A DNA stretch of 64,000 bases. It comes from Bispira polyomma (Eukaryota). Where the stretch lies: positions 24,304,001 to 24,368,000 of the forward strand of contig OZ287749.1 in assembly GCA_965649765.1 (NCBI GenBank). Direction: 5' to 3'. This document shows, piece after piece, positions 1 through 33,000 of this stretch (positions within the stretch are counted from its first letter, which is position 1; each line of letters starts with the position of its first letter). Both the position numbers and the translations under genes were made by a program. Below the pieces are notes generated by a model that was given only the letters and a program-made list of their open reading frames with translations, did no database searches and was not told the DNA's origin.

Positions 1-85
1 GCTGGTCTTTCCTACATTTGTCCACTATACTCTGTATAACATGTGGGGAGATCTTCACACACAGCAGTGGTCTGCCCTTAAACAC
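1..85 (-). CDS. IP3R-like exon 33 (truncated by window): VFKGRPLLCVKISPHVIQSIVDKCRKDQ
   Basis: ctactag acceptor; matches [21 protein letters not shown]. Confidence 0.85.
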   Translation of the reverse strand, partial: MFKGRPLLCVKISPHVIQSIVDKCRKDQ

Positions 86-9000: not shown

Positions 9001-12000
9001 CCAGTACTACTAGGCCATTGTCATTTCGAAACTGCCAAGCCTTTTTACAACTTACCAAAGGTCCCGAAATTTCGAAATGGCAATCGGTCACAAATGGCAA
9101 GACTAGTCACATGTACATTCAATTAGACAAGATTGTATTGACTGTAGTAAGACCTGTACTTGTGTCTACTGTGAACCAGACAAGGCTATGTGTAGGGGGC
9201 AATTTCGACCCCCTCACAGTTGTTTGATAAATCAGTTGCAATTATGAAATAAATCAGTTGCAATTATGAAATAGTTAAGTTGTCAGTGTTGTACACTTGA
9301 AAATTCTACCGTATTGGTTAAAATCAAGCAAAAAATTTTATTAAAATAAATCTTAAACATTTACTCTTTGGGTGTCAAAACGGCCACGACAAGTAAGCAC
9401 TGGGGTTGGGTGTCAAAACGACACCCCTCTGGGGCGTAATGGCGCGTAACACTATGTATGGTTCACCATGTTGTAGAAATGTGTTTACATAAGATTGTAC
9501 TTACTGTAATAAGACCTGTACTTGTGTTCTCCCCACTTCTGTGTTCACATCTCCAGTCATACGAGTCCCATCCCTGATGTAATTCATCACAAATCCTCGG
9601 ATATGCTGTAGTTCCTTCTGAGAACAGACTATGTTCAGCTGAATCAGAGTTGTCATCAGATGCAGCACCTTATTAATAAAGTAAATACTAGAGTTACAAA
9701 GAAAAAACTACACAACTTTACCACATAATTATATATATAGAGCTATCATACAAAGTTACATGTTGTACCAATGAACTTCCATGTAACAGTATCATTGTAA
9801 CCTGACAAGCTTGTATCTGTCGAATCTTGTTGTTTCCTAAGTATGGTAAAATCTACACCCAACCCAAACATGTTGAGAGAGCAATATTTTGATCGGATAA
9901 TATAAGGTTCATAAAATAGTAGAGCTATTTTACTTATTTTTTATCAAAGGTAAATATATTTTGGGAGACCAGTGTGAAATAATCCTTGACAAAATCGTAT
10001 ATTCGGATAATAGAAGTTTTTATAATAGAGGCTCTAGTGTATATAGATCCCTCAAATACCAGTCAAAATGAAAGAATACTTATCTGGGACGACCTGGCAG
10101 AGGTAGATACATACTGGCTTGGATGACTACCTTAAAATGGTGGTCATCTTTATTGGATGCTATTCTCAGTGGCAGGTTAAAGAACCTTAAGGATATTGAT
10201 AAATGGTTATCCTTAAGTCATGGCCTCTCTTGTTAGTTAGGCGAATGACAGTTACAGCGGCTGGTTGGCTGAACTTGGGCCGTCAAGAAAAGGTTATTTA
10301 GTGCTTTGATTACCAGACAAAGGTAGATAACTGAGTATAAGTTTGTACACAAAAGACAATAATACATTGGGTGATGCCATATGGGTCTACTAGCACACCG
10401 AATGTGTAACAACCCACCTCCTTGATGAATATGTTTCTGTCTGCATTCATGCTGTGCATTCTGGGATTACTCTTACAAAAGCCTTTGACCCATTCTTTCA
10501 AACCATGGTATGTGTCATACGTAACCTCTTCCTTTAATAGATAGGAAAATACAACAGGTCATCTGCATGAAAATGAAGTAAACTAAAACTCTTAAAATGT
10601 CCCAAAAAGCAAAGATGGTTTAGCAGCAAGCTTCCAAAACTTGGATGTTTCAATTTGGGTTTAACGTCACTCGTGACCTCTTCCTTTAATAGATAATAAC
10701 ATACAACAAGTCATCTGCATGAGCATGAAGTACACGAAAACTCTTTAAATGTCCCAGAAGACAAAGACGGTTTAACAGCAAGCTTCCCAAACTTGGATTG
10801 TTTTAGTTTGGGTTTCACTTTCACATTTTACAATTTTTTCTGCTACATCACAACGGCAGTTCGCTGATGGAGAAAATTAGAACAGCGTAATTGGTCAAGG
10901 TTTTCTGCTCTAAAAACAACCAGCCTTCAGTCGGTCTACTGACAACATTCCTGTATACGCTCTCAGGCCAAAATTCGAACCCACAATGGCAGAGATGGGA
11001 TGCGAGTGTGACAGGCCTAAAACATTATTCTAATGCACAAGGGTACAGCTTAGCAATAGAGTATACCGATAAAATCAAAATTGTTGGCAGCATACTTCAC
11101 TGCAGAAGTTTATTATTTTAGTTTTAAATAAGGCAAAATTTTGTTAGCTTTCTTATTTTGTTTTACCAAATACACCAATATACTATGAAGGTGGATAGTA
11201 TATTAAGAATGGATCTATGAGCTATTTTTGATGTATAGGTATTCTATACTGATACACATACCATATGGAGAACTTCCGATCACCCGACACCAACTCCCCA
11301 GCCCTGAGCCGAATTGGGAATTGAGAACCTTCTGATCATTATTAAATAATATTAAGTAGCAATAATAATTACTTCACCTCTATTTCTTCTGGGTTCAATG
11401 CCTTTAAGCTGATGTGTTCAAACATGAAGTTGTTGCTTTGCATCCTGGATACATTAGATTGTGTTGCATCTACCTCAAAGAACAAACCTGTAATAACAGC
11501 AGTATATATTAAGGCTACCTGTGACAATTCGAATTAAATTTGGAAAAAACATTTGTCTTGAGCCAACTTCATCCAGGCCATCCAGTAAATATGGCTCTCA
11601 TATGCCTTCGTTGGGCAGTAGGAGCTACTTCAGAATAGATTTAGCCTTCCTTCAGGTTGGCTCTAAAACTGTCATCCATTTAGAAATATGCTTAAAACTG
11701 ATCTATTTTGGTTAGGTTTCCCCTTTGAGGTGGGTTCATGCCCTAGTGATGATTAAAGATGAAGTGGATGATATCTTTGACTATTCCTTTTAGATATGAC
11801 TCTGGATGTGTGTGTTGAAGACTGTTTACTGTGAATCAGGCCCATCCTGCAGTAATAACAGGTTGCAAATATTGTGGTACTGAAGGACAGAAAAATAACA
11901 ATGTTAGGTGTCGACTGCTTGCTGTTCTACTTCATGTGAATAACAACAAATATTATCAACCGCGCTAGGTAACAATATTTATCAACTCGAATATTTACAA

Positions 12001-15000
12001 ATATAGGTTATTGCCATATAATTATTATTCAAGCATTAAAATAGCGTTTTATTGATATATTACCTTCAGAAGCACTCATTCTCTGAAAGAAATAATAGTT
12101 CTACGACATATATAGCCTTGGTCGTCATCAGTGGGCAAAGGCAGGCTAACATCTGGCGCAAGGATGTTTTCTCCAAATGAACCTTGTCGTATTATTAAAA
12201 CATATTCACAACCTTCACTATAGGCTTGACTTGGGTACAAGTTAGAGGTTTCTCTGAAAGAGGGCTTGATATAATTTTTTTTTATTTTGCCCAATTGATC
12301 TCTGCAATAGGGTCTTGTATAAACTTTTTTGATTTTGTTAATAAAATATTGTTTTTGGAGAGGTTTACATACCTGTAATGAGCTGACATACCGGTTGTAA
12401 GGAGTTGACACCCATAATGAGCTGACATACCTGTAATGAGCTGACATACCTGTAATGAATTGACATATCTGTAATGAGCTGACATACCTGTAATGAGCTG
12501 ACATACCAGTGCTCTCACACTGTCTGGTACCTTGGACTTGGAGAGAATGTGGAATGCTGTCTCCCAAGTAAAGAGATCACTGGTCTGTGTCAGTAGTTCT
12601 AGAGCTCTTTGGTTCTGACCCTAAACGACCACAGGTAACAATTGTTCATATGTATGCAGATGTGAGACCAGTATGGCCTTATACCAGCACAGATTAGCAG
12701 TATATCAAAAAAAAAGTTACTTCTCTTGTTTTAGTTTTTAAACCAGAACTTTTTAATGGCTCATTGAATCGATGACTCAAATTACAGTAATATGACTTCT
12801 GCATTCGTCAGCTTTATATGTATTAAATTGTAGTTTTTGTTAGAAGATAAAATAAAAATAGAATTTTACATACGAAGCACAACTTCTTGTATAATTGCAG
12901 CTGTTTGGTGAAAAAGGTCACATTGGTGTGATTATCTTCTTCCACCTACAGAAAATAACACAAATAAACACATATTTAGTGCAATATTACAGTTAAAATT
13001 CCATGTCCAGGCATGAGGGAATAATCTCATATATTATTCAGATCATTCAGTCTAAACAGCAATTATAGTAAAATCTAAAAGAATGGTACCACTACAAGCA
13101 AATGGCAAGGTTTTCACAATATAACTACAGTAGAACCTTCATTAGCTGAACATCTCCTATTTTATACTGAAGTACCTTTGCTATTTTATGAACTTTCTAT
13201 TATCCAAACAAATTATGGCTGTCCAAAACAAGATAATAAATAATGTGTAAAATATTTGAAATTTTTTTTAGTAAATACAGCAGGAATTTGGTAATTATTT
13301 GAATTTGTCATGTTAGAATCGAAATAATACATTCCAAACTATGATATACAGTAATTTTGACCACTCTTGGAGCATCTTCGCCATCGTCTTACTACGCCTC
13401 CAATCATGGTAAACATTACTGTTAATTATGGTTATTCCTTGATTACCAGATAGCCGTTGTTTCTTACCACAAATTTGGCCAGACTTGTCCAGTGTTCTCC
13501 ATTGTCAGTAGATATATAGACATCATTTCCCCTCCCAATTTGCTTGCCATGTATAAGATGACATAAACTCTCCTGATAGGAAGTAAAAATAGGTTAATTT
13601 GTTACAACATGGCAATTAGAATTGATAATCTTCTATTCTCTAGTTATTTAAAATGGATCATATTTGTTCTTTAGTGGTCTTCCATGAACTCAAAAGTATA
13701 TAAAAAAAAGCCTGGTAAGAGGCCAGTGATTTTGAAGCAGGAGATTCTAATCTCTAGGCCCCACTAAATTCTAGTTACACCTAAATAGACTAATTCATTC
13801 CGCCAAGGAGGTTACATTTTCAGCCATGTTTGTTTGTTCATTTGTTTGTCACCAGGATTACACACAAAAGTACTAAACTTATTCATATGAAATTTGATCA
13901 ACGGGTTAGATCTAGGAAGGAATCCATTACATTTTCAATGGGTTAGATATGAGCCTAGAAAGAATCCATTACATTTTCAATGGGTTAGATATGAGCCTAG
14001 AAAGAATCCATTACATTTTAATGGGTTAGATATGAGCCTAGGAAGAATCAATTACATTTGCAATAGGTTAGATATGAGCCTAGGAACAATCCATTACATT
14101 TGCAATGGGTTAGATATGAGCCTAGGAAGAATCAATTACATTTGCAATAGGTTAGATATGAGCCTAGGAACAATCCATTACATTTGCAATGGGTTAGATA
14201 TGAGCCTAGGAAGAATCAATTACATTTTCAATGGGTTAGATATGAGCCTAGGAAGAATCCATTACATTTTCAATGGGTTAGATATGAGCCTAGAAAGAAT
14301 CCATTACATTTGCAATGGGTTAGATATGAGCCTAGGAAGAATCCATTACATTTTAATGGGTTAGATATGAGCCTAGGAAGAATCAATTACATTTGCAATA
14401 GGTTAGATATGAGCCTAGGAACAATCCATTACATTTTCAATGGGTTAGATATGAGCCTAGAAAGAATCCATTACATTTTCAATGGGTTAGATATGAGCCT
14501 AGGAAGAATCCATTACATTTTCAATGGGTTAGATATGAGCCTAGAAAGAATCCATTACATTTGCAATGGGTTAGATATGAGCCTAGGAAGAATCCATTAC
14601 ATTTTAATGGGTTAGATATGAGCCTAGGAAGAATCAATTACATTTGCAATAGGTTAGATATGAGCCTAGGAACAATCCATTACATTTGCAATGGGTTAGA
14701 TATGAGCCTAGGAAGAATCAATTACATTTTCAATGGGTTAGATATGAGCCTAGGAAGAATCCATTACATTTTCAATGGGTTAGATATGAGCCTAGGAAGA
14801 ATCAATTACATTTTCAATGGGTTAGATATGAGTCTAGGAAGAATCCGTTACATTTTCAAAGGGTTAGATATGAGCCTAGGAAGAATCCATTACATTTTTA
14901 ATGGGTTAGATATGAGCCTAGGAAGAATCCATTACATTTTTAACAGGTTAGATATGAGCCTAGGAAGAATCCATTACATTTTTGCTTGGATTCACATAGA

Positions 15001-18000
15001 AGGGCAGATCCAGGAATAATTTGTTTTCTCTATATTAGACTCTATGCGAGACCTTTGTAAAGTGTCAGATGAGTCTAATAGGTACTGTTATTTCTTTGGA
15101 CCACAATAAATTCTTCTAGTTAAGCAGAAATCTATTTTATATATGGGGCCATATTCACATTTGTAGAACACAAATCTTAGTCTCAACAAATCAAATTTTT
15201 TGAAGCAATATTTTAGGCCAATCGAATTGCTTGAGACAAGAATGTAAGAAAGAATAAAAATCTTTTTCCCAGCTCTACCTACAGAGAGTCTACTACATGT
15301 ATATGTATTGGCTTGTGACTCTATATGCAATCCATAACTTTGATTCATTTCACTTAGCTTACCTTACAACTTCTGACCAAAGTCTCCGCTATTTGTACTT
15401 GGTTTTCGGTAATAGCGATGCCATCGCTGGTACACAGAGACCCCAACAAATCAAAGAAGTAACTCTCCTGAAACAAAAGGGTATCAGGGTAGACATAAAG
15501 ATTTTATTAGTAAAATGAAAAATGATATCACAGTTATAAGTTTTTACTCATGCATTTAGGATAACATTCAATTGAATTATTGTTGCCATGGCAACAGCCT
15601 TAGCAGTTTATTGAGCAAATATAAAGGGCTAATGTCTACACTAGTACTTGCAGTTGTCATGGCAACAATTGTATGACAATACATGAAAAGATAAGTCCAC
15701 TTTTTATTTTAAGGACCTTTCACTAACCAATATCAATGTATTAAAACATAAAAGTGGGTTTGGATAGGAGGGAGACAAAAATTTCCTTCCTGTTTAGTGC
15801 CGATTCGGAACTGTGACGTTTCCTGTGCATGTGCACAAGTAATTCCATGAAATGTCCTTGCCCTTGCTCAGACTGAACATGTGTCTTACCTTGTACAGTG
15901 TCCATATTTTTGTAGAAAGTTGCAAAAAACCAGGGTCCATATTCTTGAAAGTATACCCAGTTTAAACTCAAACTCAACCCATATACAGGCTATGTGGAAA
16001 TCATTGTACATAGAAATAACCTATATTTGTGAACATTCATTTTAATAGAGCTTTCAACACTAAATTTATGTGAAGTCAGATTTTTGATATGTTTACTGTA
16101 TCCAGAGCTTTCAACACTAAATTTATATGAAGTCAGATTTTTGATATGTTTACTATATCCAGAGTTTTAGAGAATCCAGTTTTGAGTTGAGGTATGAGTT
16201 TCAGCTGAATATAAGTTCGGGAATACCAGTCAAGGGTTTTTTAATTGTCCATATATATTTGTGCAATGTTGTCAGAACACACTTAAAGAATATTTACCAA
16301 AATATGTATATATGTCACAAAAATGGCATGCTGTAAAACCTGGTTAACAGAATAAAAATGAGTTAATATTATACACCTGAGCAAAGTGTATTAGAAGAAG
16401 ATTACAGTGTCAGAAGTGTCATACAAGAGGGAGGTCACACAGGCATTAGGATTAAACAAAGATATGATAGCATTGTGATAACTCTATAGCCTAGTGTTCG
16501 GCCAATACAGATATCTCTTATATTGTGTAAACTTATAAAGATTCTTGCCTCCACTGGGATTAGAACCGGGGCTCTTTACATCTTGAGATTAATAGTTTAG
16601 TACACTAACAGTTGAGCTAAAGGGGAAACCCATTAAGCCTGAGTGTTTAATGCCCTGATATACACAGATATTACAATTGGCATTATTGTACCAATATATG
16701 TTATTATTATTATTATTGAAGTATTTGTATAGTGCCCTATTCACATATCATCCTCTAAGGCGCTCATTCTCTGAAGCCCTACCACATAGCCTAGGGTAAT
16801 TTGTCACTAAGCAATGGTATGTTCACATCTTGCCCAAGGATGTTATCCCACCACTGAACCTTGCAACTTCAGCAGGATTTGAACTGGGAACCTTCTGATC
16901 ACCAGACCAACTCTCTAACCACTAAGCCACTGTTAACAGTTACGAATAATCTGGCATCAATTTTTTCAAAAAACTGCAGCTTAAAATTATACTTTACTTA
17001 AATAAAGACAATGTGGAAGTCCTTCTATATGAAAATAGCCTAAACCATCATATGTCATATTGTTCTACTTTAGCCAGGGAAATGGGAATTCCACTTTAAG
17101 CTTGAGTCAGATTTAAGTTTGACATTTTGGGGAAAATACACCCACTGTTTACCTTCTGTTGAGAAAATAACTCAATGATGTCATCCACATGTTGAGGTAA
17201 AATTCTGTCTATGACTGTTCTATTGTTTCTCACAAGCTCCATCATAGTTTGACAGCATAGTCGGCCAACTCCATTCTGAAAAACAACAAATAAAACTACG
17301 AATTTTGTAGAATGCTGCCAGTGATGTTGTAGTAAAACACAGAAATTTTTTTAAAACGGTATAATAGGTACCTGCGATATGCTGGAGTATGACATGGTGT
17401 ATGGGTTAAGGATGTGTAACTGTCAAACTGGCAAGGCATTGTTGCTGGCGATGGCAATTTTTCAAGAAGTATAGAAAAACGTTTACTACCCTTACACTTT
17501 AGAAGGTGAAAAGTTACGAGCATAGAAAAGGCATTTTAGAATTAAACAATAGGTAAATATATATCTTGAAACAGAAAGTGAAACTCATATTTGAGATGAT
17601 AGCACTGCGCACAATAGAAACTGCACATACATTCTGTAAACTATGTGTACTTTTTTTGTGAAACATGGTTGCAAGTAATGAACACATTGTAAAAAAGAAA
17701 AATATACTATAAGACTATATTAATTATTATGCATCTAGTAAAGTTTTAGAGGTAATATAAATACTTAAAGAGTCTTTAGTCTAATTCTAGAAACAAATTT
17801 GAAAATGGGTAAAAGATATTTATTACAATATCACATGCATATTAATTTATATTTGATTTGGTTTGGGTATAATGTCACTTTCAACATGGTTTTTTTAGAG
17901 CTGGAGAAAACCAATGTACACTTTCATTTGGTCAAGGGAAAGCCATGTAACTGTCAACTTTCCCATCTAAAGCTCCAGCCAAGATTTAAACAGGGACCTT

Positions 18001-21000
18001 AGAGGTGGGAGGTGAGTGTGTTATTGTTGCGCCACACCGAAGCCCCTAATATCACTTTATAGGATTCAAGTATATTAAGATACATACATTCAGACAGAGC
18101 TGATGTCTAAATACAGGCAGAAATCTAGCACAGTAAAGCCTGTTGGACACACTGTTGCTGGATGCAATATTGTACAGGACACTGTAAATCTTCTTGAAGG
18201 TCTTTAACACATGGGGTCTGTCCTTGGATGAAATAGGTGAATGGAGGAATTCTAGAAAGGAATCAACCATCTGAAATACAGGGCAATATAGAGAGTGTGA
18301 TAGAATTCATACAAATTCAATTCGATAATACTGCAAAGTTTTATATATTTATATATAGTAAACCCGGATTCAAAATGGCCTTTTTTTAGCAATGTAGGTA
18401 TAAAAATGCTGAGTAGCTTATGAGCCATTATCCACCTTTTTAGCTAGGAATTTAGATTAATTTAGTTCAAATAAACAGTCTAAATAGTCAAAATTACAAT
18501 TGAAAATTGTGAATCAAAATTCCAGTTTGCATGAATTTTGAATTGAAGCAATGGTCACTAATGAAAAATCAAATATCTTAAAAATATTAAATACTGCTGG
18601 ATAATGTCACCAATGTTGTCATCTTATATAACTCACTCTCACATTTAGTGTTCCTTAAGCAAGTCTTAAAATAGTGACATTCTGCAAGATTATGCCACCT
18701 AAAGTGTCCACTTTGTAGTAGATCTAGTCTCACCTTAGTGTGTTTTATGATGTTGTATGTCTCTTTATCGTCCCTTTTATCATCCCTTTTGTCGATCCCT
18801 TTTATCACCCCTTTTATCATTTTTTTTATCATCCCTTTAAAGTAGTCTCACCTTAGTGTGTTTTAAGATGTTGTACTTCTCTTTATCATCCCTTTTATCA
18901 TCCCTTTTCATGGACAGTCTTCTTTGTAGTTCATCAAAAGTCTGAAGTCAAAGAAAAACATCAAACTTAAAATATAAACAGCGGAACACACTCATAAGTA
19001 AAAGCTCTTCTAAGCCAGTATTCATGAAAGATCTAAGACTAATGTTAAAACTTAGGCTTAGTTAGCCCAGTGTTAAATCAAACACTTAGATCTGTCTGCC
19101 TCCACTATGTTTTGGCCTTTAAATGGTATCACAAATGGTGTCTTAACTAAGACTAAAGTCTTAACTTGAAGCCTATTAGACCAGGCAATCACCTTTCGTG
19201 AATACCACCCCCAGGTCTACTCCAGTTATGCAAAGCTGAATTTGTGGTCAAACAAAATCTATTCTAAATACACTGTTAACTGGCCAACTTTCACAAACAT
19301 TCTTACTCTTAGATTTTTGTATCAACCAATCTGATTGGCTTATAAATTATTTCAAATAATCTGATTGGCTGCGATTAAGAAAATTCTAAGAACTGTATTA
19401 TAAGAATTATTTTGAATATATAGCACCTGGAACTGTTGTTTGGTTAAGGTGGAACCTGTTTTAATATTTTGTAATGTAGTGTAGTGTCAGATTATTATTA
19501 TCAGGCGCAGCTGAGGGGTGTCAGGTTTGCCTGAGTATATAGTGGCCATATCATCGCTAGTGAATTTCACACTGTGCACCAGTCCTATGAATTTTAAAAA
19601 AAAATACTCTTGTTTGACCAGACTAGAGCTTTCGGTTATGAAACATGTTCATACCATATAGTAAGGAGTAGCAATAGACAGGATGGCTACTGATCAAGGC
19701 ATTTGCCAACAACATAAAACCTAAATGTTCTGAGGTGAACGGTTACTTAACTCACCCTTGTAATTTTCAGACTTTCAATTGCAGTCAGCAAGTGACCGGC
19801 ATGTTTCTGGAACAAAATGTAAGATGAACTTATGAATTGTTTGAACACAAACAATTATCATATAAAGAAATTATAATTCATTTTAAAAAACTAATTAAAG
19901 ATATTTTATAAACATGTTGCTATTTTTACATTTTAGGAAAACTTAAAAGGTCATTGTTCACTACTCCACATGAGAACATGGAACATGCTTTACTTTTTGT
20001 GTCAGCTCATCTGATTTCTGTGGCTAAAATAGCATTATAATACAAACAAATATACCTGGCCAATTTGGCTTCCGAATCCGCCATCCGAAGTCCGGTCCGA
20101 AAAAATTAAAATATAATAAAATAGAAAAGTATGTTACACCTGTTCTACGGCACCTCAGATTTGGGAGCCGTATTTTAAAAAGCGATCAATGATAGATTTT
20201 TTTTCGGATGATGGACGGGAATATGAAGTAAATTTAATTGATTTTGTGAGGTTGGTGACGTTTTCATGTGGTAAACTAGACAAAATGACCGTTTTTCTGA
20301 TGTAGTGTATCTTCATGTTGGGCCATGGAAACTGATAACGGATTCGGACGCAAAATCAGCCAGGTATATTCACCCCTTAAGGCTGCTCCTTGTTCCAATA
20401 ATAATTTAGATAAAATAGTGTGGGATTAGCCCACTAAATGATTGATAGGAGAAACTCTCCACCAGTATTGGGATATTGTGTTTTAGTGTAGCCTTTTTTT
20501 TATGAGGCAGTAATGATACCACAATATGTAGCAAAATTTTAAAAATTAATAAACAATATACAAGACTACAGAGGGTAGACAAAGTTCCAATATACAACCT
20601 CTATTATTGAAACACCTGAGAGAATAAATAGTCACTCAGATAAAAATGGTGCAAAAATTAGAAGTGTCTTTTTAGTGTAAAACAATAGAAGGACATGCAA
20701 ATATATAATAAATGAAACATTTAAAAAGCGTCAAATTGATGAGAACATTCTCTAAGGCGATGATATCCAAAGAGGGAAGATCCAGGGGGCAAGCAAAAGG
20801 TCATTACCAGCATACACCAAGGGAAGAGTGACTAAGGAGCGGGGTAGGCAAAGTAAGTTTTCAGACAGCTTCTGAAATCTGTGATTTTATCCTGTGATTT
20901 GACAGTGTGTGAGTTTGTTCCATTTAACAGGAGCCGTCTACCAAAGCAGCGCCTACCGATTTTTCTGTTGGTCGTGTTGAGGAAACGGAGAGGCAGTTTC

Positions 21001-24000
21001 CCCGGGAAAGGCTACTAGATTTGATAAGGGAGGACAAATAAGGATGTTGGTTGAGTTTGATAGCTTTGATCACAAGAAGGTTTTTTTTAAAAAAAAATGC
21101 GCTGTTCGACATGTAGCTAGTGGAGTTTGTTTAGGTATGGTGAGACATGTCTAGAGCAGGGGGCCACGAGATGGGCCATGTGTTTGGACAATGTACCTTC
21201 TGACTTAGTGAAATGAGTTAGCAAAACTTGAGAACATATTTGCCAAACATTTATATAATAGAGTTGTAATATTATTATATATTACATTTCTTGTAATATT
21301 ATATATTACATTCCTTACCATGTCTCTGATTTCCCTCATAAATGGAACTAGACCAAACACATAGTTAAACAAATCCACCTCCGACGTGGTCACCTTCTGA
21401 AGTATGAAGGCATCAGGGTATTCCCTCGTTTGGCTTGTCTTCAGCTGAAATATGGATTGATTACAACTAATGCAAAATTATCTGTTACCAGCGCCACAGG
21501 CATGGGCTTTGATTGGAGTTAATGCTATAAACATGTAGAATAAGGAATCTCAAATTCGCCACTGTATCTGAAATTTGCCACCTTAAAAATGTTGTATTTT
21601 GGATAGAATTGTGGGTAATATTTACTAAAATTGAGATTTTTGTAACTATTTTGCCTTACTTAGCTCAAATTCCAGTTTTTTTTGTCAGTTTTTATTGATT
21701 TGGCTGAAATGGTTTGGGTGGCGACTTTCAGATAACAGTAGCCAATTTGAGATTCCTTTCTCTAACTTTGATGTTGGCTATGATGACACTATGATGTTAG
21801 CTATTACAGTAGCAGAAGTCAAAAATAGTGATTTATGGTTAACATTAAACAGGGTTAATAAAATCAAATATTGAAATTCAGATAGTAGATATTCTAGCTA
21901 TTGTGCTTATAACTTGTATTATTTATTGTGAACGTTTATCCAATGTAGGTGTACAATATTTTAGCCAAATTGACAAACTATTTAAAAAATATTATCAAAA
22001 AATACAATATTTTTACCACAAGCATGACATCACAAATTTCTATTTCATTCTTTTGGGGAGACAATTTCATCCCAAGAGAAACTATAATCAGATGTAGGTC
22101 ACTTTTAATTGTATTATACATTTAGTAAAAATTTAGTGATTTTGACCATAATTACCAGCCAAGCAGTTAGTATGCAATCCAGTTCCATCACTTTTAAAAT
22201 AGCAGCTCTTAATAATAAAAACAATGCATTTAACACATGTTTATCTGTAAATTTTAGTTAGTCGTTATAGAGTTAGTCTGATGATCAGAAGGTCCCGAGT
22301 TTGACTCCTGTTAACACTATAATTGGGGGTCATTGGGGGATACTATAACTCCTTTAATTGGGCCAGATGTGAACATATCATTACCAACTGATGAGGACTA
22401 ATTATTGGCTATGTATTAGAATCCTGATTAATAGTTTATTGATTCTGATGTTGTGCTTTAGCATATGCTTAGCATTGGTATGGTGCGTTAAAAATCCACA
22501 ATACAATACAATTTATGGGGTGTTTTTGTCATGTGTACCTGTAAAAGAGTAGCTTGATCATACTGAATTGTTTCCAGAGAGTCTCCTTCAGTATTCAGTT
22601 GTCTTTGGTAAGTAAAATCTGAAAAAGCAAAAGAAACTGCATGAAATACACACAAAACTGTGATTACCATTTTGTTCATTAGTGGCCGTTTTCTCCAAAA
22701 TGTTCATGCTCAACTCAGATAAAAACTCAACTTGTTTCTTCAAATTGGGAAAAGTACTTGCCATTGGTCGGTGGTTTACAGTGTTTTAGCTCTGGTTTCT
22801 TTCACCATTAAAATATCTAGCCGTCGTGATATGGCCTAAGCTCTTGAAAGTGATGTAAAACCCAGCTAAATTTTAAAACATTTATTTAAAATATACCGGT
22901 ATTATTTCGATATTAAAGGAATCAGAGGCCATATTCACAAGCATTCTTAGAATGTAATTCTTAGAATTTTCTTAGTCACAGCCAATCAGATTGCTAGTAA
23001 AAATATTTTCAACCAATGAAATTGTATGAGACAAACATTTTAGAGTAGAAATCTTTGTGAGGCTTCCTTACCTGATGTTCCATTGATCCAAGAGTCCCAA
23101 TGCTGGTGACATATCCTGACTGTACCTTCAAAATGTATGTGTGGAGTTCTTGGTCCATGTAGAAGTGGATAGAACCTGAACAGGGTGCGCTCACTGGCTT
23201 CTGGTACAAACTCTGAACTACCTGAGATAACAATTATTATACAAGCTGAGACGTCAGCAAATTTTATTCTATATAATTAATAGGTTTCTGTGGACTTAGA
23301 AACAAACTTAACTTATTTCAACGTCAATTTAAAAAAAAATAAAACTGTTATTTTAGGGATCTTTATTTTGTCATAGGCTGGATTAAATTATATTTTCCTA
23401 AAAAAATTACTGACTACACAAACATTATTCTGATTAGCTTGCCAATACATTTTTATCTTAGATGATAACTTGTAGTAAATGCACATTATTTGGTTTACGG
23501 TGAGTTTTTGTTATTGTACCATTACACAATATGACTATACTATAATACCTTCTTCATCAAAAGTGAGGTACATCCTTGTTGTAAGATGAAGCAAGTGAAA
23601 TTTGTCTCCCCACTTGAGGCTCTCCCCTAAAAAGCAAAGGTACGATAACATCTTATATCAAACAGCTGTACTATTAAGATCACTTTGTTCTTTTGAAACA
23701 AAACTCTCACTCATTTAAGGACATAGTTTTTGGTGCTCCAGAAAGTCTATCATTTCCATTATCATCAACTACAGAGGAAGCAGGAACTGCTTTTATACTA
23801 TACATATATGTCTTGATTAGTTTTGGAAGGTTTCCTGTCAGTAGCAGGTTGTGTTGGCTCATTCTGGCTTGTTTTGCATTGGTCTCACTTAGTGAACGTT
23901 AGTGAGGTATTTGAGTGGGTATTTGTTATTGTTCAGTATGTCTTCGTTTCTCATTACTGGATATTATTCAAGGTACGTGTCACTTTTGTGGCAGGTCCGT

Positions 24001-27000
24001 CACAGTTTCGAACACGTCTCAACTTCATGGCAGTGGGGATTTTTTGGGGGTTATGGGGATCTAGACATGGACGAAAAGCCACAAACCTGCAACGATAACT
24101 GATGATAGTCCGTCTGAATACGACTGAGCTTTTACATCTAAGTTTTTAATGTAAATTTGTAATTAGAGAGCTTGCCTGATATTGCTGAGTCCCCCCTTAC
24201 AACCTGCCAGTAGGTAGAACAGTTCTTGGGAGGAAGGAAACTTTTCATCTTCATCTCATTCCTCTTACGAACACGTAAATGTGCTGTAATTTTAATAATA
24301 GAAAATACAAATAAACTTACCAAATATGATAAAAAAACAGGCAACAAGTGTTTAAGTTGTTTAAACTTGTCAGCAAAGATCACCATGTTTGTCATTCAAC
24401 TTAAAATCATATTGAATATTCCTTATAATCATAAGCATTTTCTTCCCACACACTGGCCTCTTTCCAATGTGGGTTCATCTTTTTGTCCATTTGTCCTTCA
24501 TGTGAGAAATTTTGTTGGGTACTTAGCAAAGGTCGGTGGTTTACAGTGCTTTATCTTTTTTATTTTTATTGTTCTTTTTTTGTACATGATACAGAAGTCC
24601 CTAGCACAAGAACAATACTGGTACGTATAACATTATAACATCCAAACCAGAATTACTGTATGGCTAGCATTAACTCGCCAAAATGATTTACAAAAACATC
24701 ACCCTTACATTTTTGGAGAAAAACTAGTTCCTCCATCTTCAATTTATCCTTAACTATATGCGGAAAACCATAAAAGGAAACTTTCGACTCATTCTTTTTA
24801 CATTGTTTAATGTAATATTTTCCTATGAGCAGTATATAGTTAACAATGTAGTAATATTTTGGATTGAAGTGAATTAATCCAAATAAGACTTCTAAAACAG
24901 AAAAGTTTACAGATACTGACAAATTTACAAGCAACCATCTCTCAACCTGCTTCCAAAAATAATTTGTGTCATGACAATAGAAGAAAAAATGTTCTAGGTT
25001 ATCTTCGTTTACAATAGCTGCATGTTCGCCAATCTCTAATATTCCACAAAAATAACTTATAGTTACATGTAAAAATTCTATGTAATATTTTGAACTGAAA
25101 GGTTACTAAATATGTGTCCTGAACAATCTTAGTTGGCAGTAGATAAATATTTTTCGAATCTATGACTTCTAAAAAGGGGTAATATTCTACCCATTTGTTT
25201 TTATTTGATTGAATTTTATATACTGATTTAACCAAAAAATTATAGACAACTCTGTTTTTAACACTACTGATATCAGTAATGCATCTTTGAGGAACACTGT
25301 TACCAGAAGTTGAATCAAATGTATTGTTTTTGGAATTTTCTGAACCTTGAATATACTGAGCTTACAATTTTGTTATATTTTATATCACATATGAGTAAGT
25401 TATATCTTCTTTCTAAATCTGTTTTTTTTTACAAAAGTACCATCAACTACAGTGCTTTATCATTGGTTTCTTCTACCAATAAATCTGGCCATCGGGATAC
25501 GACCTAAGCTATTGCAAAGCGATGTCAAACCAACTAAATTCTAAAATCATATTCAAACTAGAAGGACACTAAATAAAGTGCATACCTCTTCCACAAGTCC
25601 CCACAGTCTAAATAGACAAAGAATTGAAACAATTACGAGATCTGAGCGTTAAGCTGGATCCACTCCAAAATTTATTGTATTCTTCTTTGGACCATGGCCC
25701 ATCTCTCCACCAAATTTCATGTAAAATGGTTCAGTATTTTTTTGTGTAATCCTCATGAAAGGAAATGAAATAGGAAATTTATTATAGTGACTTATACAAC
25801 ACAGGGTTGTTTCAAATGCGCTTCCTCATTGGCAACCACTATGGGGCTTGCTTGAGGATGACTATTTATCAATGTCCCCAAGGATCTTTAATCTGCCTCT
25901 GGAGATTAGTACTCAGTGACAAAGGAATGCCATTTTAAGTGGTCATCCGAGCCACTAGGCAAACTTGTGTTCACATTTTGCCCAAGGATGTTATCCCACC
26001 AAATAAAACTAGCGGCCGATACCCAGAATAGAACAGGGGACCTTCTGATCATAAGACCAACACCCTAACCACTGGACCACAGGGGACAAATGAACCAACA
26101 GCAGTCACCGATGTCGGCTGATGTAGCGCTTCTTTTGATCCAATATGTACTATATCTTTTAATATATATTTATTTTCTTTTTTTATAATCTTTGTTTAAA
26201 AATCGGACCTACCTCCCAATTTTTTCGCTCCCTGACCTATACATTTTAAAGGTGTAACAGACATCCGCTGACATCTGATCTGAGGGAAATATGTTGAATG
26301 AAAGCACTTGGTAGTATTATGTAACGACCGGTAACATCAGCCGATGTGAGCCAACGTCGGCCGAGAAAAACATGCTGAAAGGGAGCTCAGGCTAAATTGG
26401 TTAAAAACAAATATTCAGAGAATAGAGGTTTAAATGATGGAGGTTTAACTCATTCTTTACTGTAGTTGTATATTATAGCACATTAAAAAAATCTGTCTTA
26501 AAAAAAGTGAGTAACATGGTGGATAAGGAACACAGAGGACCTGTGTTCAGCCTGGGGTGACAAGGTACTGAGGTAGATGCATAGTAACTTGGATGACCAC
26601 TCGACAGTCCTCTGTCATTGGGTTATATTTCCAGGGGGGCAGACTAAAGAACCTTGGGGAAGCTGATAAATGGTCATCATCAACAAATATTCAGTTAGGT
26701 GAATGACAGTTACCGGTGCTGGTTGGTGCAGTCAAGACAAGGTTAACTAGCCCTTTGAATTCAAGATAAAGGTAGATAAATATGCTAAATATATATTTCA
26801 ACACATGATGCATTGGAAATACACATATGTTAATTTATTATTATAAACCCCTATTATTCAAACTTCTATTATCATATTATTTTTATAACTTGACAAATTT
26901 ATGTTTTCCTATTGTTTCAGGCTAAAAATGTGTCTTCTCTTTCATGAACCTTTAACTTTATCAGAACAAAAATTCTTATTCTCCCAACACGTTCAGATAA

Positions 27001-30000
27001 TGGAGGTTCCAGCTGTAGTTTTAAGAATGCCTTGCCTGTTTCATTGTAGACATTGGGGTAGACTCCTTCAGCAGCCATGTAAGCTTCCAAGTCCTTGTGG
27101 AATAACTGCACAACCGAGCCACCCTGGAGGTCAACAAGTGTAATACTGTCAATTATTGAAAGAACCTTGCTGCTGTTAGTTTAATGCGCTCATATATATA
27201 TATATATACACACATTAATATTACATGCCCATTTTCCACAAAGAACGAGAGACCACAGTGGCCTAGTGGTTATAAACTTCTGGTTTAAAATCACTGGCCT
27301 CTCACTTCTGGGGATAAAATCCCACAAATTCCTTCTTCATGTGAGAAAGTTGTCGGGTACTGGCCGTAGGTCGGTGGTTTTTCCCACCATTAATCATGAC
27401 TGTCGCATTATGACCAAAGCTGTTGAAAACGACGTAAAACCTAAATAAATTCAAATAAATAAATCTAAGGAAGAACTCTCCTCAGGTCTTGTATGACTAC
27501 ACTAGGATCGACTCAACTCTGTAACTCACTTGGCTGAGAGGGGGGGGGGGGGGGGGGGGGGGGGGATCATGATGCATCTCCACCATGTAAACAACAGAAA
27601 GACCTTGTTTTCTGCTGAGATTCGATCCCTGATTTTGTGGATCTTGATATTAACAGTAACACGCACAACAGTTGAGCTTAAAAAGCCTGAGTTTTTAATT
27701 CACTCAAATACACTGATATTCCAATACCATTATAACTTTTAATTATTCCACAACTTTGACTAAGTTTTCTAGGTTGAGACTAGTGAGTACAGATTATATT
27801 AGATTAGTTTGTGTTTTAGCCCCTTGGAGACCTTTAAATGCCTGGGGACAGGCAGTCGACAGTAAAGTCTATTCATCAGTGCCATGTCTGTCGACCAGCA
27901 GTCGACACTCCCATAATTATATTGTTTTTCATTCTTTCAGTACTGCTTGGTATATTAGAGTTCCCCCTAATTAAATCATCATATATGTGTGCATTATGAA
28001 ACCCAAGAAATCACCTGTAGTGAATGTTTTGAATAACTTCAGCTATCTGCAACCTTATACCTGGGAATTTCCTTTGATATATGTGAATACTGTTCCATTA
28101 ATGGCAAAGGACTTAATGTGTCACTTTAAACATGTTTTGTGTCATCATATTCCCGAGTCCCATGAGGATATACACACAGTAATTGCTGTTTTTTTAATTT
28201 TCCCCTAAAAAGTCCAAAGCAATATAAATATGCATATTCCATGATAAAGTATTAAGAGCCTTACAAAACCGCCAACTACACGACACTACAAGGGACGACA
28301 CATCGCTGCACAACTCTAATATACACACCAAACACGACACCACACTACATAATCCATATAAAGTACATGTTTAACTGAATCCCCCATTCCCATAATGTAC
28401 CTGTATATAGAATAACCATATGGGTATTGTATATATAGCAACAACATAACATATTTTTGTAGAAATTTCTCCAAGGCCAATTGCTGTGTCGTGCAGTGTA
28501 GTGTGGTGTAGTGTCGTGCTGGGAGCAATCTTGAGAATCTATATATTTCCTTATTTATATTTAATTGTAATGTTGTGTCAGCGGTCTGTAAGGCCCCTAA
28601 TGCTCGTAAAGGAGTAAAACACTGGTCTAATTTAACTAAGGAATTAAAAATTCACCACACACTTGTAAATCCCTATCTAGTAAATGTCAAGTAATTCTCT
28701 CAAGATATAGTTTGTTTTACAATTGCTTCATGCTTTACCATAATTATTATTATGCTGATTTAAAGAAATCTTCCAAATCTTTAATTTTGGCCAATCTAAT
28801 TAAGGATTTATCAAAAGACAAATATCAGATATGTGTGACATTTTAGATTGTTTACTGCAAAATTTGCATGTTTTGTAGTAAACCAAATAAAAGTAACTAC
28901 AGCTTAACACTTTTAAGTCAAACCTCAAGTGATCAGGAGAAACACCTTTACTTAAAGCTGGATTTCCACTTAACAGGCTTGATTTTAAAAGAAAAGGTCT
29001 TTGTGGGACTGCCGATTTTTTTCAACATAAAAGGGAAAATTTACTTCATTTTATTAAATTGAGTTCTACTTAAAGGGGTTCAGCTGTACAATTATATCAT
29101 TAAAACTTCACTAAACCATCATGTTCTGAGTCATCCATATCATATCGTCTATTAGAATTAATGTTATTTGTCATTGACAAGTAAGCCTATTATTCACCGT
29201 ACCCTTAAAACCTCTGCAGCCTCCTTTTTCTTTGGACTGTAATGTCTGAGGACAGTGAAGACAGCTTTTTCTATCCCACAATTCAATTCGGTGATGCTTT
29301 GATTGTTGTTTTGGATGGTGACATGTAAAAACGTGCCAATCGATTTGACACTTTCTAACACAATTTGATCTTCTAATTCCACCTGTAAAACAAAATAGAA
29401 AATGTTGTGTACAATTTCAAGGCTCTTATCCATTATATATTTTTATGGATACAGCAGAACCTCTATTATTTGAACTTCTGCTATCCGAATATTTGATTTT
29501 TTTTACGAACTCATTTTCACTCTCCCAAATCTAGTTTTGTCCTGTTGATTTATATCAAAATCATTTTACTAAGATGTTCCAATAATAGGGGGTTCTACTG
29601 TACATTAAATATAAATTGTGTGACCTTGTGAGGTGAAGGTTAGTATCTTTATACCATTTTCTATGCAATGTATGCCACTGTTTTAAGGAGAGAGGGTCAG
29701 AAATAAACATATCATGTATCATGTTTGAAGTTTTATTTTGCTTAAAATTAGTTCCCATGAAGTTAACAGATAGTTGGGTTAACATAACATATCTACCATA
29801 AAACATAAGTTTAGTTATTAACATCTAGTTTTAAAACATCTATGCATTATCTAACCCACCATGTTATCACTACCAATGGTTACTCTTTTCAGCAACCAGC
29901 TGTGTGAAGCATCAAATGTAAACCAGGATGCCTAACACATCCAATTTCTATATGTAACACAGGATTACTAAAGTGGGCTTCGCACCATAACGGTAAGGAG

Positions 30001-33000
30001 AGGCGGTAAGAGATGTAATGAAAATCGTCTTGTAGCCCGGTTAACCCTATCTATAACTTTCCTTAACTTCAGCCTTCTTCCCGAACCTTCTGCAGTAGGC
30101 TGGGTGAGGCAGAAGTTTTTCACATGGTCGAAACTTAGGCGAAAAAGGGTGGAAATATCCTCCACCCGTTTCTGAGTATTCTCGTATAATGTCAGTATCT
30201 CTTTCGTTCCAGTATATCGTGTGTTTCTGCCAATTTCGAGTATTTCTGTGTATTTCCATATCACTACTGTAAATCTTCCATGGCAGTAATCATCTGCTTC
30301 CATCCGTGAAACTTATCTGGACAAGTTTCACTTCATATGAGGGGTATATTTTTCTTAGATGGAAAAGCAGATATGCCAGGTGGAAGGATAAGTTACAGTA
30401 TCTTCTGGTACCACCTACCATACCTACTATACTTGCCAATGTATAAACGGGGCCTTACGCATCCAACAATTTGAAGTGTATAGACCATATCCAATTACTG
30501 ACACCCTGCATTAAAGGTGACAGTCACAGTATTAATTATCAGATTTATAGAACATGGCCTACTTTTCTATTCCTTTTTGATCCCTTTTTATACATTTTCT
30601 TCATGTGTTTTAATTTGGTAAATGACAACAGAGACAGGGGACTGGTCAATGACATTTCTTATCTTCCCTTTTAGGGGTGAAAATTTAGTCACCCTTCACC
30701 TTGTAAACATACACAAAATTTATGATACATATTAGAAAATCAAACCTAACTTTTTGTTTTCTTTTAATATTTCTTCATTTTATCAATAAAAATAAGTTAA
30801 TTTTTCCTCAATGGAAAAACCCCTACTTCAAACACCCGTCACTGATCCTCTGTCACCAGACATCTGTTGGGTGTCTCTTGAATAAAAAACGTAGGCTAAT
30901 AAATGAGAGTAAATACACATACCCGTTCACCTTCTGTTTTTACTTTATATCTCGGGACAATCCTAAACTGAGCATGTTTGGAATTGTAATCGTCAAGTTT
31001 CACCTGAAAAATAATTTGCCGTTAATAATTGTAATTGTAATTAGACTTTTATAGTGCTTAATCTCCCCTTAACGAAGGGGACTCTAAGGCGCAACAGCAC
31101 AAAAGACAGTAATCTAATTTCCAATATCAAGGGACAGAAAAGGGTCAGCACCACAGAGCGTGCCGGGGGATGATGGAGACTAAGGTGGGTATGCTTTGGT
31201 GTACAAGTGGGTTTCAAGCTGCTTTCTAAAACAGGCTAGTGAGGGGGACGCAGGAATAGCATTCCAAACAATGGGAGCATCAACAGCAAAGCTGTGACCA
31301 AACTGTTTAACTGACTTTTGAGTAGATGGGTGGAACTTTGCAACTAGGAAATTACTACCACTCTGACTGCGTCTGCTGTTGTTTTTGTATCTCAATCAGC
31401 TAAATTTATATAATAAATTTATCCAACTAAAGTTTACTTGAAATTAATCCGCAATAAGTCGATGTAAAGAAAAGTCTACTTCTGCTAACTGAGCACAAGG
31501 AAACAATTGTTATAACAAATATTAAAGCCCGTCAAAATACAATACAATACACCACATTTGGTGAAATGTATTATATACACTTGTATTTAAATTATTTATT
31601 TGGAATTTTATATAGCAAACGCAGAGAACACCAAATTTCCACATACAAAATGTGGAAATCCGGATCCGGAAAACAAAAATTATTTTTTAAATTCTAGAGG
31701 TATTTACTCCACTGAGTGCCCTTCTAGTGTGAGCTCTTTTTAAATAATTTAAGTGTGCCCCTAAGCTTTAGCACATCTTGCCAAATAACATTAGACAAAT
31801 TAAAAAAGACAACATTTTTGTTTTGATGAGGGATATAAAGACTCTTATCTAACCTAATGTGGTATCGATGAATGTTTTAGATCAATATTGGCATCTTAAA
31901 TACACTTTATTGCATTATATTGTCTAATTATTGAGGACACACTTACCAGCATCTTGTTCCTGTCCACTGCACTAGTTTCTGTTGTACTGACCAGTAGGAA
32001 TTTACTGGTAAACACGTGTCTCAGCTGGAAGGAGAAATAAAGCTTAAAAAAACCTTGAAAGGAACTTATGAATCCTTAAACTAAGCAACTAAAAGAAACA
32101 AAAAGCATTTTTTTTTTGTTAATTGTTTTTAAAAGATATACAGTATTACCTGAACTATTACATGACCTTCTATTATCCGAATATTAATCTATTTCATGAC
32201 TTCAGTCACACTCTCTCAAATTCATGTTCTCCTGTTGTTTTATACAGAAATACTGCTACTGTTTTATTAACTTTCTTTCATCCAAACCAAATCTTACTCT
32301 CGCAACATGTTCAGATAATAGAGGTTTAACTATATATCGGAACCTCCTCGGTGTGGGGCTAACACTCTCGCTTCTCACGGTCACAGGTTTAAATTTCTTG
32401 TTAACGGCCATGGTTTACAGTACAGAAATGTTAACCGACTGTACTGGTTTCATAGTCCAGTAAACTAGCTGCCAAAATGTAATACTTTAAGTGTTAAAAG
32501 CGCTTGTTTAAACCCCAAATAACATAAATAGGACTGTAATCGCTAGGACATGGGTCAGATTACACACAACACGCTTATGCATTTTGGGACCATATCTGTC
32601 GTGAGCATTTTAACAATATTTTGCTATTGCATGATGGGAGTTTTTATATGTAAACTGTTGTACACTACTTTCACTGGATTGTTTTGTGAAACACACTTTG
32701 CTAACATAATGTACAGCTATTACATCCTCATGTATTATATTTTTTTATTATTTATTCTTCATCCTCTACAGTGTATGTTCTCCAATGAGGGATGGTTCTA
32801 CAATTATATAGCATATTGGTCATCATCAATTAAGACAATATTATGTTCACAGATCTTGCTAAAAGATGTTCACCCCAGATAACCATTATGGTGCTACAGC
32901 GAATAAATCTGATCACCAGAGCAAGTCCCTGAGCGAGAGTCTTAAACCAAGGACTTTTCTGAACACTAGACCAACTCCTCAACTGGGTGTGGAACTGGGA

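Follow-up and report, generated by a model that had tools for sequence, protein, structure and literature searches.

The 64,000-nucleotide stretch of Bispira polyomma DNA analyzed here (the window) carries, on the minus strand at 1..52555, the 5' part of an intact gene that, by its sequence, is a member of the already named IP3R-B subfamily. The gene belongs to a fast-evolving branch of four paralogs and probably encodes an IP3-insensitive release channel, with Ca2+ and contacts to proteins or subunits as its predicted activators in place of IP3. The four genes of this branch lack K508, R568, and K569 (ITPR1 numbering, verified on solved chains), which makes an IP3-insensitive intracellular release channel likely. 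The alignments point to a loss of the IP3 pocket in two layers, one family-wide and one at the level of the branch, and this layering is an addition to the sequence-only reading of the same DNA.

Spliced profile alignment yielded a model of 64 exons and about 2,550 stop-free codons, with the ATG modeled at 52555 and the gene running about 38 kb past window position 1 on the minus strand. The sequence-only reading gave no strand and described an intact reading frame of about 1160 codons in 33 exons. The portion in the window indeed comprises 33 exons and 1,162 codons, with the same result from two different profiles, but the model lacks two short segments, 24 and 29 profile positions long (exon 24 and exon 37), which are either deletions or missed exons, and "intact" means near-complete profile coverage only, because the aligner cannot place a stop codon or a frameshift. 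The 2,551-residue product is collinear with the 2,621-position IP3R-B profile, and all 63 introns are GT-AG or GC-AG. Coding exons 1 and 2 (51862..52555, minus strand) encode the start of the suppressor domain (MDPSLEHCLRIGDYICLYSEE). Intron 2 contains a DIRS-like retroelement with reverse transcriptase and tyrosine recombinase ORFs (42015..46760, minus strand), which is no part of the channel; two upstream "exons" of the first gene model lay inside the retroelement and were discarded. Contigs of three sequencing runs match 17994-19513 and 24020-24400 with no differing letters, leaving an assembly error at the key codons unsupported, with the runs representing at most two samples of one study and possibly the assembly's own sample.

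Phylogenetic analyses nested the gene inside IP3R-B, on a long branch, both in a FastTree tree of 104 sequences and in an IQ-TREE tree of 38 sequences. SH-aLRT support, computed on a fixed topology (the best IQ-TREE tree obtained) in trees containing no RyR, reached 100 in three cases: IP3R-B versus the canonical receptors, the four-gene branch, and the grouping of this branch with Dimorphilus gyrociliatus DgyrCDS6999, its sister in both full-length trees, a position in which long-branch attraction may play a part. In BLASTP searches with the model, the best database IP3R-B protein scored 1,464 bits at 35% identity versus 155 bits at 22% identity for the genome's own canonical ITPR, which lies on C4 with all pocket motifs intact. 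The "third, poorly characterised lineage" suggested from the sequence alone thus already has a name, IP3R-B (PMC7992859). According to that leech study, ip3rb1 and ip3rb2 are members of this subfamily, one IP3R-B is highly enriched in touch neurons, and the physiology of IP3R-B is mostly yet to be determined. Three proteins that fall in the B clade here, Lottia 163525, Lottia 236387, and Capitella 201920, are linked by shared record numbers to the IP3R set of the same study, and their B label is deduced by exclusion. The gene is not the canonical ITPR ortholog, as had been proposed, since it falls in IP3R-B and a canonical ITPR is encoded elsewhere in the genome.

Nor is it a ryanodine receptor, a further proposal that held. 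All six RyR-repeat (PF02026) matches lie at C2:43.42-43.49 Mb, within the separate RyR of this genome (C2:43.4-43.5 Mb), and none lie in the gene. The RyR layout combines these repeats and SPRY domains in about 5,000 residues; the product is half that length, and SPRY domains were excluded through its collinearity with the B profile, which leaves no space for them. The product instead has the ITPR-like layout of about 2,600 residues. It shares with canonical IP3R-A (ITPR1-3) the suppressor domain, beta-trefoil, ARM/RIH domains, RIH-associated domain, six-helix pore, zinc finger, and Ca2+-site glutamate, and its position in the tree and collinear domain layout are those of IP3R-B proteins such as Lottia 163525, Capitella 201920, Pomacea XP_025114960, and Capsaspora CAOG_04510. 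Among 11 exons scanned, three matched PF01365, PF08454, and PF00520, one of them above the cut-off; the end of the RIH1 domain (15363..15467, minus strand) matched PF01365 with an E value of 5e-4, below the curated cut-off. PDB sequence searches with the 26-residue loop exon and with the RIH-associated exon gave no match, a homolog search with one N-terminal exon retained none of 25 candidates, and the ARM1 exon gave no usable match against a protein atlas.

The eroded IP3 pocket proposed earlier is borne out by profile alignment. When 91 B-type N termini were aligned to 28 canonical ones with HHalign (probability, 100), the alignment paired R504 with K, K508 with N, and R511 with K at posteriors of 0.93 to 1.00, Y567 with S at 0.78, R568 with V at 0.98, and K569 with S at 0.99, so that all six alpha-lobe changes read by eye hold. 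Five of these positions (K508, R511, Y567, R568, and K569) make major contacts with IP3 (bioRxiv 10.64898/2026.05.22.727127). These changes lie in two IBC-alpha exons on the minus strand, one (18852..18941) ending in KEKYNILKHTK, with KEKYNILKH at 18884-18858, and one (18088..18270) with SNSVSNRLY, of which NSVSNRLY occupies 18156-18133. A six-residue shift aligning KEKYNILKH with LREQNILKQ was rejected on the basis of exon-end anchoring to the neighbor and of the HHalign posteriors. In the IBC-beta exon (24176..24283, minus strand; HLRVRKR...TYWQ, GC donor), the equivalent of R265 is kept and the 266-269 loop is remodeled and longer than in ITPR1. The sequence-only reading held both arginines to be kept in LRVRKR (24278-24261, minus strand): an Arg stands at R265 in either register (HHalign chooses the first Arg, posterior 0.50, and MAFFT the second), but R269 cannot be placed (posterior, 0.26). 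Most of the 81 B proteins from the database have I, M, V, or T in the column of the last Arg in LRVRKR, and the HHalign strand register, extended without gaps, would place an Arg at 267. T267R is one of a set of variants in which IP3R1 activity is abolished, most often because binding is impaired (bioRxiv 10.64898/2026.05.22.727127). The exon at 27036..27123 (minus strand) shows a further change, R241Q, absent from the earlier reading, at a position that is R in 28/28 canonical and 74/81 B proteins. Within the canonical contact set (R265/T267/G268/R269, R504/K508/R511, and Y567/R568/K569), R265 is the one residue out of ten clearly identical to the canonical IP3R. Basic residues still near the pocket (R272, R274, K275, R276, K486, K488, K493, and R540) could rebuild an anion site.

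The comparison with other IP3R-B proteins tells the two layers apart. The whole family carries R504K, Y567S, and the remodeled 265-269 loop, and the gene shares with it the HLRxR strand as well as the K at 504, the S at 567, and the D at the E1938 site. K508 is kept by 79/81 database IP3R-B proteins, R511 by 79/81, R568 by 76/81, and K569 by 79/81, in a set that was gathered by exact words from a conserved Pomacea N terminus and therefore favors motif-keeping proteins. This basic alpha-lobe patch, a family feature as observed in this analysis, reads N/K/V/S in the gene. Unlike almost all sampled B proteins, the gene lacks K508, R568, K569, and R241; R241Q, K508N, R568V, and K569S are particular to its branch, and Q507Y and R511K to the gene itself. 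The Dimorphilus protein shares YCAR after position 570 with the gene, but its RQKLLRN and KSKKN leave K508, R511, and K569 intact. All eight long-branch controls keep K508 and R511, with K (seven) or R (one) at 569 and R (six), K (one), or Q (one) at 568, at an overall conservation of 0.73 to 0.92 versus 0.77 to 0.79 for the four-gene branch. The gene keeps 19/39 B-invariant columns in ARM1 versus 259/315 (82%) elsewhere (Fisher P = 1e-5), and its worst 30-column window spans residues 486-578. However, some lysine-keeping controls, such as Tubulanus P0097 (26/39; P = 0.001), likewise have a poorly conserved ARM1, and in the Capsaspora and Diaphanoeca controls the worst window falls in ARM1 too, so region-level erosion is not unique to the gene.

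The pore lies about 30 kb beyond the window. The GGGIGD motif that was to be sought there reads RYGTIGD, in place of canonical GGG(I/V)GD (NEGLRNGGGIGD); this filter is five residues shorter than the canonical one, and Ca2+ permeation is thus not assured. A short RYG-x-IGD filter and the TTIGLNIIFGIIVDTFSE gate are common to the gene and IP3R-B, in which YGLIGD is found rather than YGTIGD. The gate helix FGIIVDTF and a C2H2 zinc finger (CFIC...H...H) are retained, with 61/66 B-invariant columns kept in the membrane and zinc-finger region. The ARM3 Ca2+ site of the IP3R/RyR superfamily is likewise present by sequence, with D1770 at the E1938 site (D in 74/79 B proteins), E1824 at the E2002 site (E in 77/79), and T2394 for the third site residue, T2614 (human IP3R1 numbering). 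The other three paralogs of the branch have likewise preserved the acids of this site, the gate, and the zinc finger. In IP3R1, E1938D keeps Ca2+ regulation at a lower open probability (PMC9522344). The Capsaspora IP3R, despite its conserved site, is reportedly not Ca2+ regulated like the mammalian channel.

We infer that the gene product, as a channel or a subunit, is likely blind to IP3 and gated by Ca2+ or by partners; that it resides in the ER, forms tetramers, and conducts Ca2+ is an assumption drawn from homology. IP3 non-binding has already been attributed to the subfamily in PMC9113742, citing Alzayady 2015. An ancestral IP3R-B may have acquired the remodeled beta-lobe loop and the shorter filter while retaining the basic alpha-lobe patch, and the four-gene branch would then have dropped the patch and become uncoupled from any inositol-phosphate-like ligand, leaving Ca2+ at the ARM3 site as the main activator. 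Such a channel would resemble RyR, an established case of a release channel that works independently of IP3 and has a conserved Ca2+ site (PMC9522344). More tentatively, IP3R-B may ancestrally (Capsaspora, sponges, and molluscs) have had a near-invariant basic pocket for an anionic messenger, which 5 of the 10 paralogs in this annelid-like genome discarded to become ligand-free, Ca2+- or mechanically coupled release channels with a shortened YGTIGD filter, reaching a RyR-like mode independently.

The pocket might instead bind another metabolite or a protein, or IP3 in a rearranged mode, a rather unlikely alternative. It is favored by the strand Arg at 272 and the basic residue at the R511 position, kept in 4/4 branch members, by the conserved suppressor domain (26/28) and IBC-beta (20/22), and by trypanosome IP3Rs, which are reportedly IP3 gated despite lacking the critical residues (PMC9694693) and so also speak against IP3 insensitivity. 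The replacement residues vary among the four paralogs, however (508, N/H/N/N; 568, V/N/V/L; 569, S/S/E/Q), which looks like relaxed constraint rather than a new conserved site. It is unlikely that the product is a modulatory subunit, co-assembling with a conserved IP3R-B, such as the pocket-intact paralog at C1:45.8 Mb, or with canonical ITPR to damp or retune ligand-gated release. Binding-deficient IP3R1 subunits do act as dominant negatives in heterotetramers (PMC7939385), the membrane region is well kept, and 4 of the 10 B paralogs in the genome keep K508, R568, and K569 together; but the gate, zinc finger, and Ca2+ site are retained, as a stand-alone channel needs, and four diverged copies (41 to 43% identical to the gene) fit subspecialized channels better than one inhibitor.

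That pocket erosion reflects general relaxation in a decaying, recently redundant duplicate is quite improbable. The long branch, the ten B copies in one genome, the two absent stretches, and many exon-edge repeats would agree with decay, but the reading frame and all introns are preserved despite 43% identity to the nearest paralog, conservation outside ARM1 is high, and fragments resembling two branch members occur in other sequence records. An IP3-insensitive IP3R-B channel remains the preferred reading. A canonical ITPR, pocket-intact B genes, and pocket-eroded B genes in one genome form a natural series for studying how B channels open, and the series also bears on how an IP3R-type channel sheds ligand control, which is the step believed to lie behind the emergence of RyR. 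In addition, the K508/R511/R568/K569 patch in ordinary B proteins questions the simple view that the family binds no inositol phosphate.

A weak match (E value, 0.6) was also present at C9:20.85 Mb. In the exon at 18852..18941, a 12-bp tandem repeat directly precedes the K504 equivalent, and the adjoining intron holds a 94% identical copy (18725..18790, minus strand) of the exon's 3' half together with its donor, which reads KETYNIIKHTK and is out of frame with the exon.

The channel gene that the sequence-only reading marked at 18088..24283 lies on the minus strand, and it was modelled with a spliced profile-to-DNA aligner, taking in a further 140 kb outside the window. With a profile from 121 related proteins, the model begins at an ATG at 52555, comprises 64 exons encoding 2,551 residues, and reaches its stop codon approximately 38 kb beyond position 1 of the window. 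Repeating the alignment with a second profile that gave the closest paralogues more weight led to the identical 33 exons and 1,162 codons within the window and to differences only at a few variable exons, all outside it, which bears out the open frame of about 1,160 codons and 33 exons proposed earlier. Because the aligner forbids stops, intactness is judged by coverage, with two profile stretches, of 24 and 29 positions, missing from the model. The key exons are matched letter for letter by contigs of three sequencing runs, which come from no more than two samples, all in a single study, and are perhaps the assembly's own source. The introns are 59 GT-AG and 4 GC-AG, the latter at 27035 and 24175 within the window and at two positions outside it; two are consecutive and flank the IP3-loop exon, and three have a GCAAG donor preceded by CAG or AAG, with ATG preceding the other. 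Partial near-copies of 12 of the 64 exons occur elsewhere in the gene (51113-51820, 18725-18790, and 12367-12453, plus those of exons beyond the window), mostly as tandem copies, placed in the following intron, of the exon's 3' edge together with its donor, with up to 9 matches for exon 2.

Genome searches recovered a canonical ITPR on contig C4 that keeps LRTTGR, RERQKLLRE, YRKNQ, and GGGIGD, a RyR at C2:43.4-43.5 Mb on the gene's own contig, and ten further loci, the present gene included, with exon structure in common. The pore exon gave 274 matches at E values up to 0.001, and among the 150 listed, the long ones belonged to records of nemerteans, gastropods, a hemichordate, lancelet, flatworms, and octopus. 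One long match used as a query yielded 141 full-length relatives, which among the 120 listed extend to Trichoplax, sponges, Capsaspora, and a choanoflagellate; a canonical exon yielded 419 canonical fragments, with rat ITPR1 1-604 among the 120 listed. The full-length tree held 79 B-type proteins together with 20 fragments of canonical receptors and 5 gene models of this genome, short and redundant rows being left out, and the trees contained no RyR. The gene falls deep within the B clade. Its tandem neighbor (C2:24.2 Mb) and genes at C2:14.5 and C2:14.7 Mb join it in a four-gene branch, and the sister of this branch is a Dimorphilus protein. Three other genes of the genome each group with an annelid protein, weakly in one case, which suggests that the animal is annelid-like. 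Because two database pore fragments resemble branch members (P0003 is identical to the C2:14.5 Mb gene at 53 of 67 positions and P0019 to the tandem neighbor at 48 of 63), the branch, as judged from the pore, occurs beyond the B. polyomma assembly. The visible middle part of the divergent B-like Capitella protein 215467/215466 (PMC7992859, supplement 5) is similar to the branch by eye.

The feature is real and well observed, and it belongs to a known subfamily. The leech paper (PMC7992859), with which the present B clade shares three records, distinguishes three bilaterian types, IP3RA, IP3RB, and RyR, describes IP3RB as a largely uncharacterized type that vertebrates, fly, and worm have lost, and reports enrichment of ip3rb2 in touch neurons. 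The third, poorly characterised lineage proposed earlier is this named subfamily. To it the present analysis adds a second, branch-specific loss, of which no description was found in the literature searched.

This loss concerns the IP3 pocket, whose listed contacts are reported as major contributors to IP3 binding in bioRxiv 10.64898/2026.05.22.727127 and PMC7939385. The N-terminal regions of 28 canonical sequences, 81 database B proteins, and 10 B sequences of this genome were aligned. In this alignment, R241, R265, T267, R269, R504, K508, R511, Y567, and R568 (ITPR1 numbering) are each present in 28/28 canonical sequences and K569 in 27/28. Among the 81 database B proteins, the canonical FLRTTGR is replaced by a longer HLRxRxxD loop, R241 occurs in 74, and the alpha-lobe has K at 504 (79), K508 (79), R511 (79), S at 567 (77), R568 (76), and K569 (79). 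The present gene has Q241, K504, Y507, N508, K511, S567, V568, and S569. The six alpha-lobe substitutions read by eye (R504K, K508N, R511K, Y567S, R568V, and K569S) are upheld, since HHalign places this register at posteriors of 0.78-1.00, but the retention of R269 claimed with them is dropped because the 265-269 loop reaches only 0.24-0.50 and HHalign and the N-terminal alignment pick different Arg residues for R265.

K508, R568, and K569 are missing in all four branch members and in a fifth paralogue (C1:40.0 Mb); of the remaining B paralogues of the genome, one has K569N and four keep all three. Controls of equal divergence retain these lysines. Two points count against a branch-specific loss: ARM1 taken as a region is weak in several controls as well, and because the B set was collected with words of a conserved N terminus, eroded paralogues elsewhere would be missed. 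A literature search whose reach excluded most subscription papers found no description of pocket-eroded B paralogues or of the conserved B alpha-lobe, the latter of which the Alzayady text or supplements may cover. Pocket loss goes further still in the fifth paralogue, which lacks the HLR Arg and carries K508A, R511I, R568E, and K569A but has a YGLIGD pore; its tie to the branch is weakly supported.

Where the sequence-only reading had suggested looking downstream for a GGGIGD pore, the filter reads RYGTIGD, with five residues fewer than NEGLRNGGGIGD. Short filters are frequent among family members, with YGLIGD as the top pattern (32 of 156 proteins, with 72 unmatched), and YGTIG marks the four-gene branch. 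B paralogues of the second subclade (C10:22.7 and 24.1 Mb) have pore loops without IGD (HRGLVLTLHE, HRGLIVSLYE, and QRGLISGVYD), and pore exons are apparently duplicated at C10:22.7 and C1:12.6 Mb. The gate helix is the family's own, the zinc finger (CFIC...H...H) is complete, and the Ca2+-site positions are D1770, E1824, and T2394. For IP3R1, PMC9522344 reports that E1938D retains Ca2+ regulation and that neutralizing E2002 nearly abolishes release.

Because nearly all of the major IP3-binding contacts are lost, gating by IP3 is quite unlikely, although the trypanosome IP3R case, as presented in PMC9694693, warns against such conclusions. Since the gene retains the Ca2+ site, the gate, and the zinc finger, the mode that sequence comparison favors, on balance, is an IP3-blind channel that would be activated by Ca2+ and partner contacts. 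Among the rival readings, a changed ligand is doubtful, a role as a modulatory subunit is marginally more so, and decay seems improbable.

The 14.7-kb intron 2 contains a DIRS-like retroelement (42015-46760, minus strand, the gene's own) with RVT_1 and tyrosine-recombinase Pfam matches, and a second similar element lies between the gene and its tandem neighbor. The same intron carries a tandem array of approximately 55 copies of a 27-bp unit (37764-39236), which yields open frames of 500 to 600 codons that are probably not coding. A phosphagen kinase gene (PF00217; E value, 9e-14) has exons at 61447-64000 on the minus strand, upstream of the channel gene.
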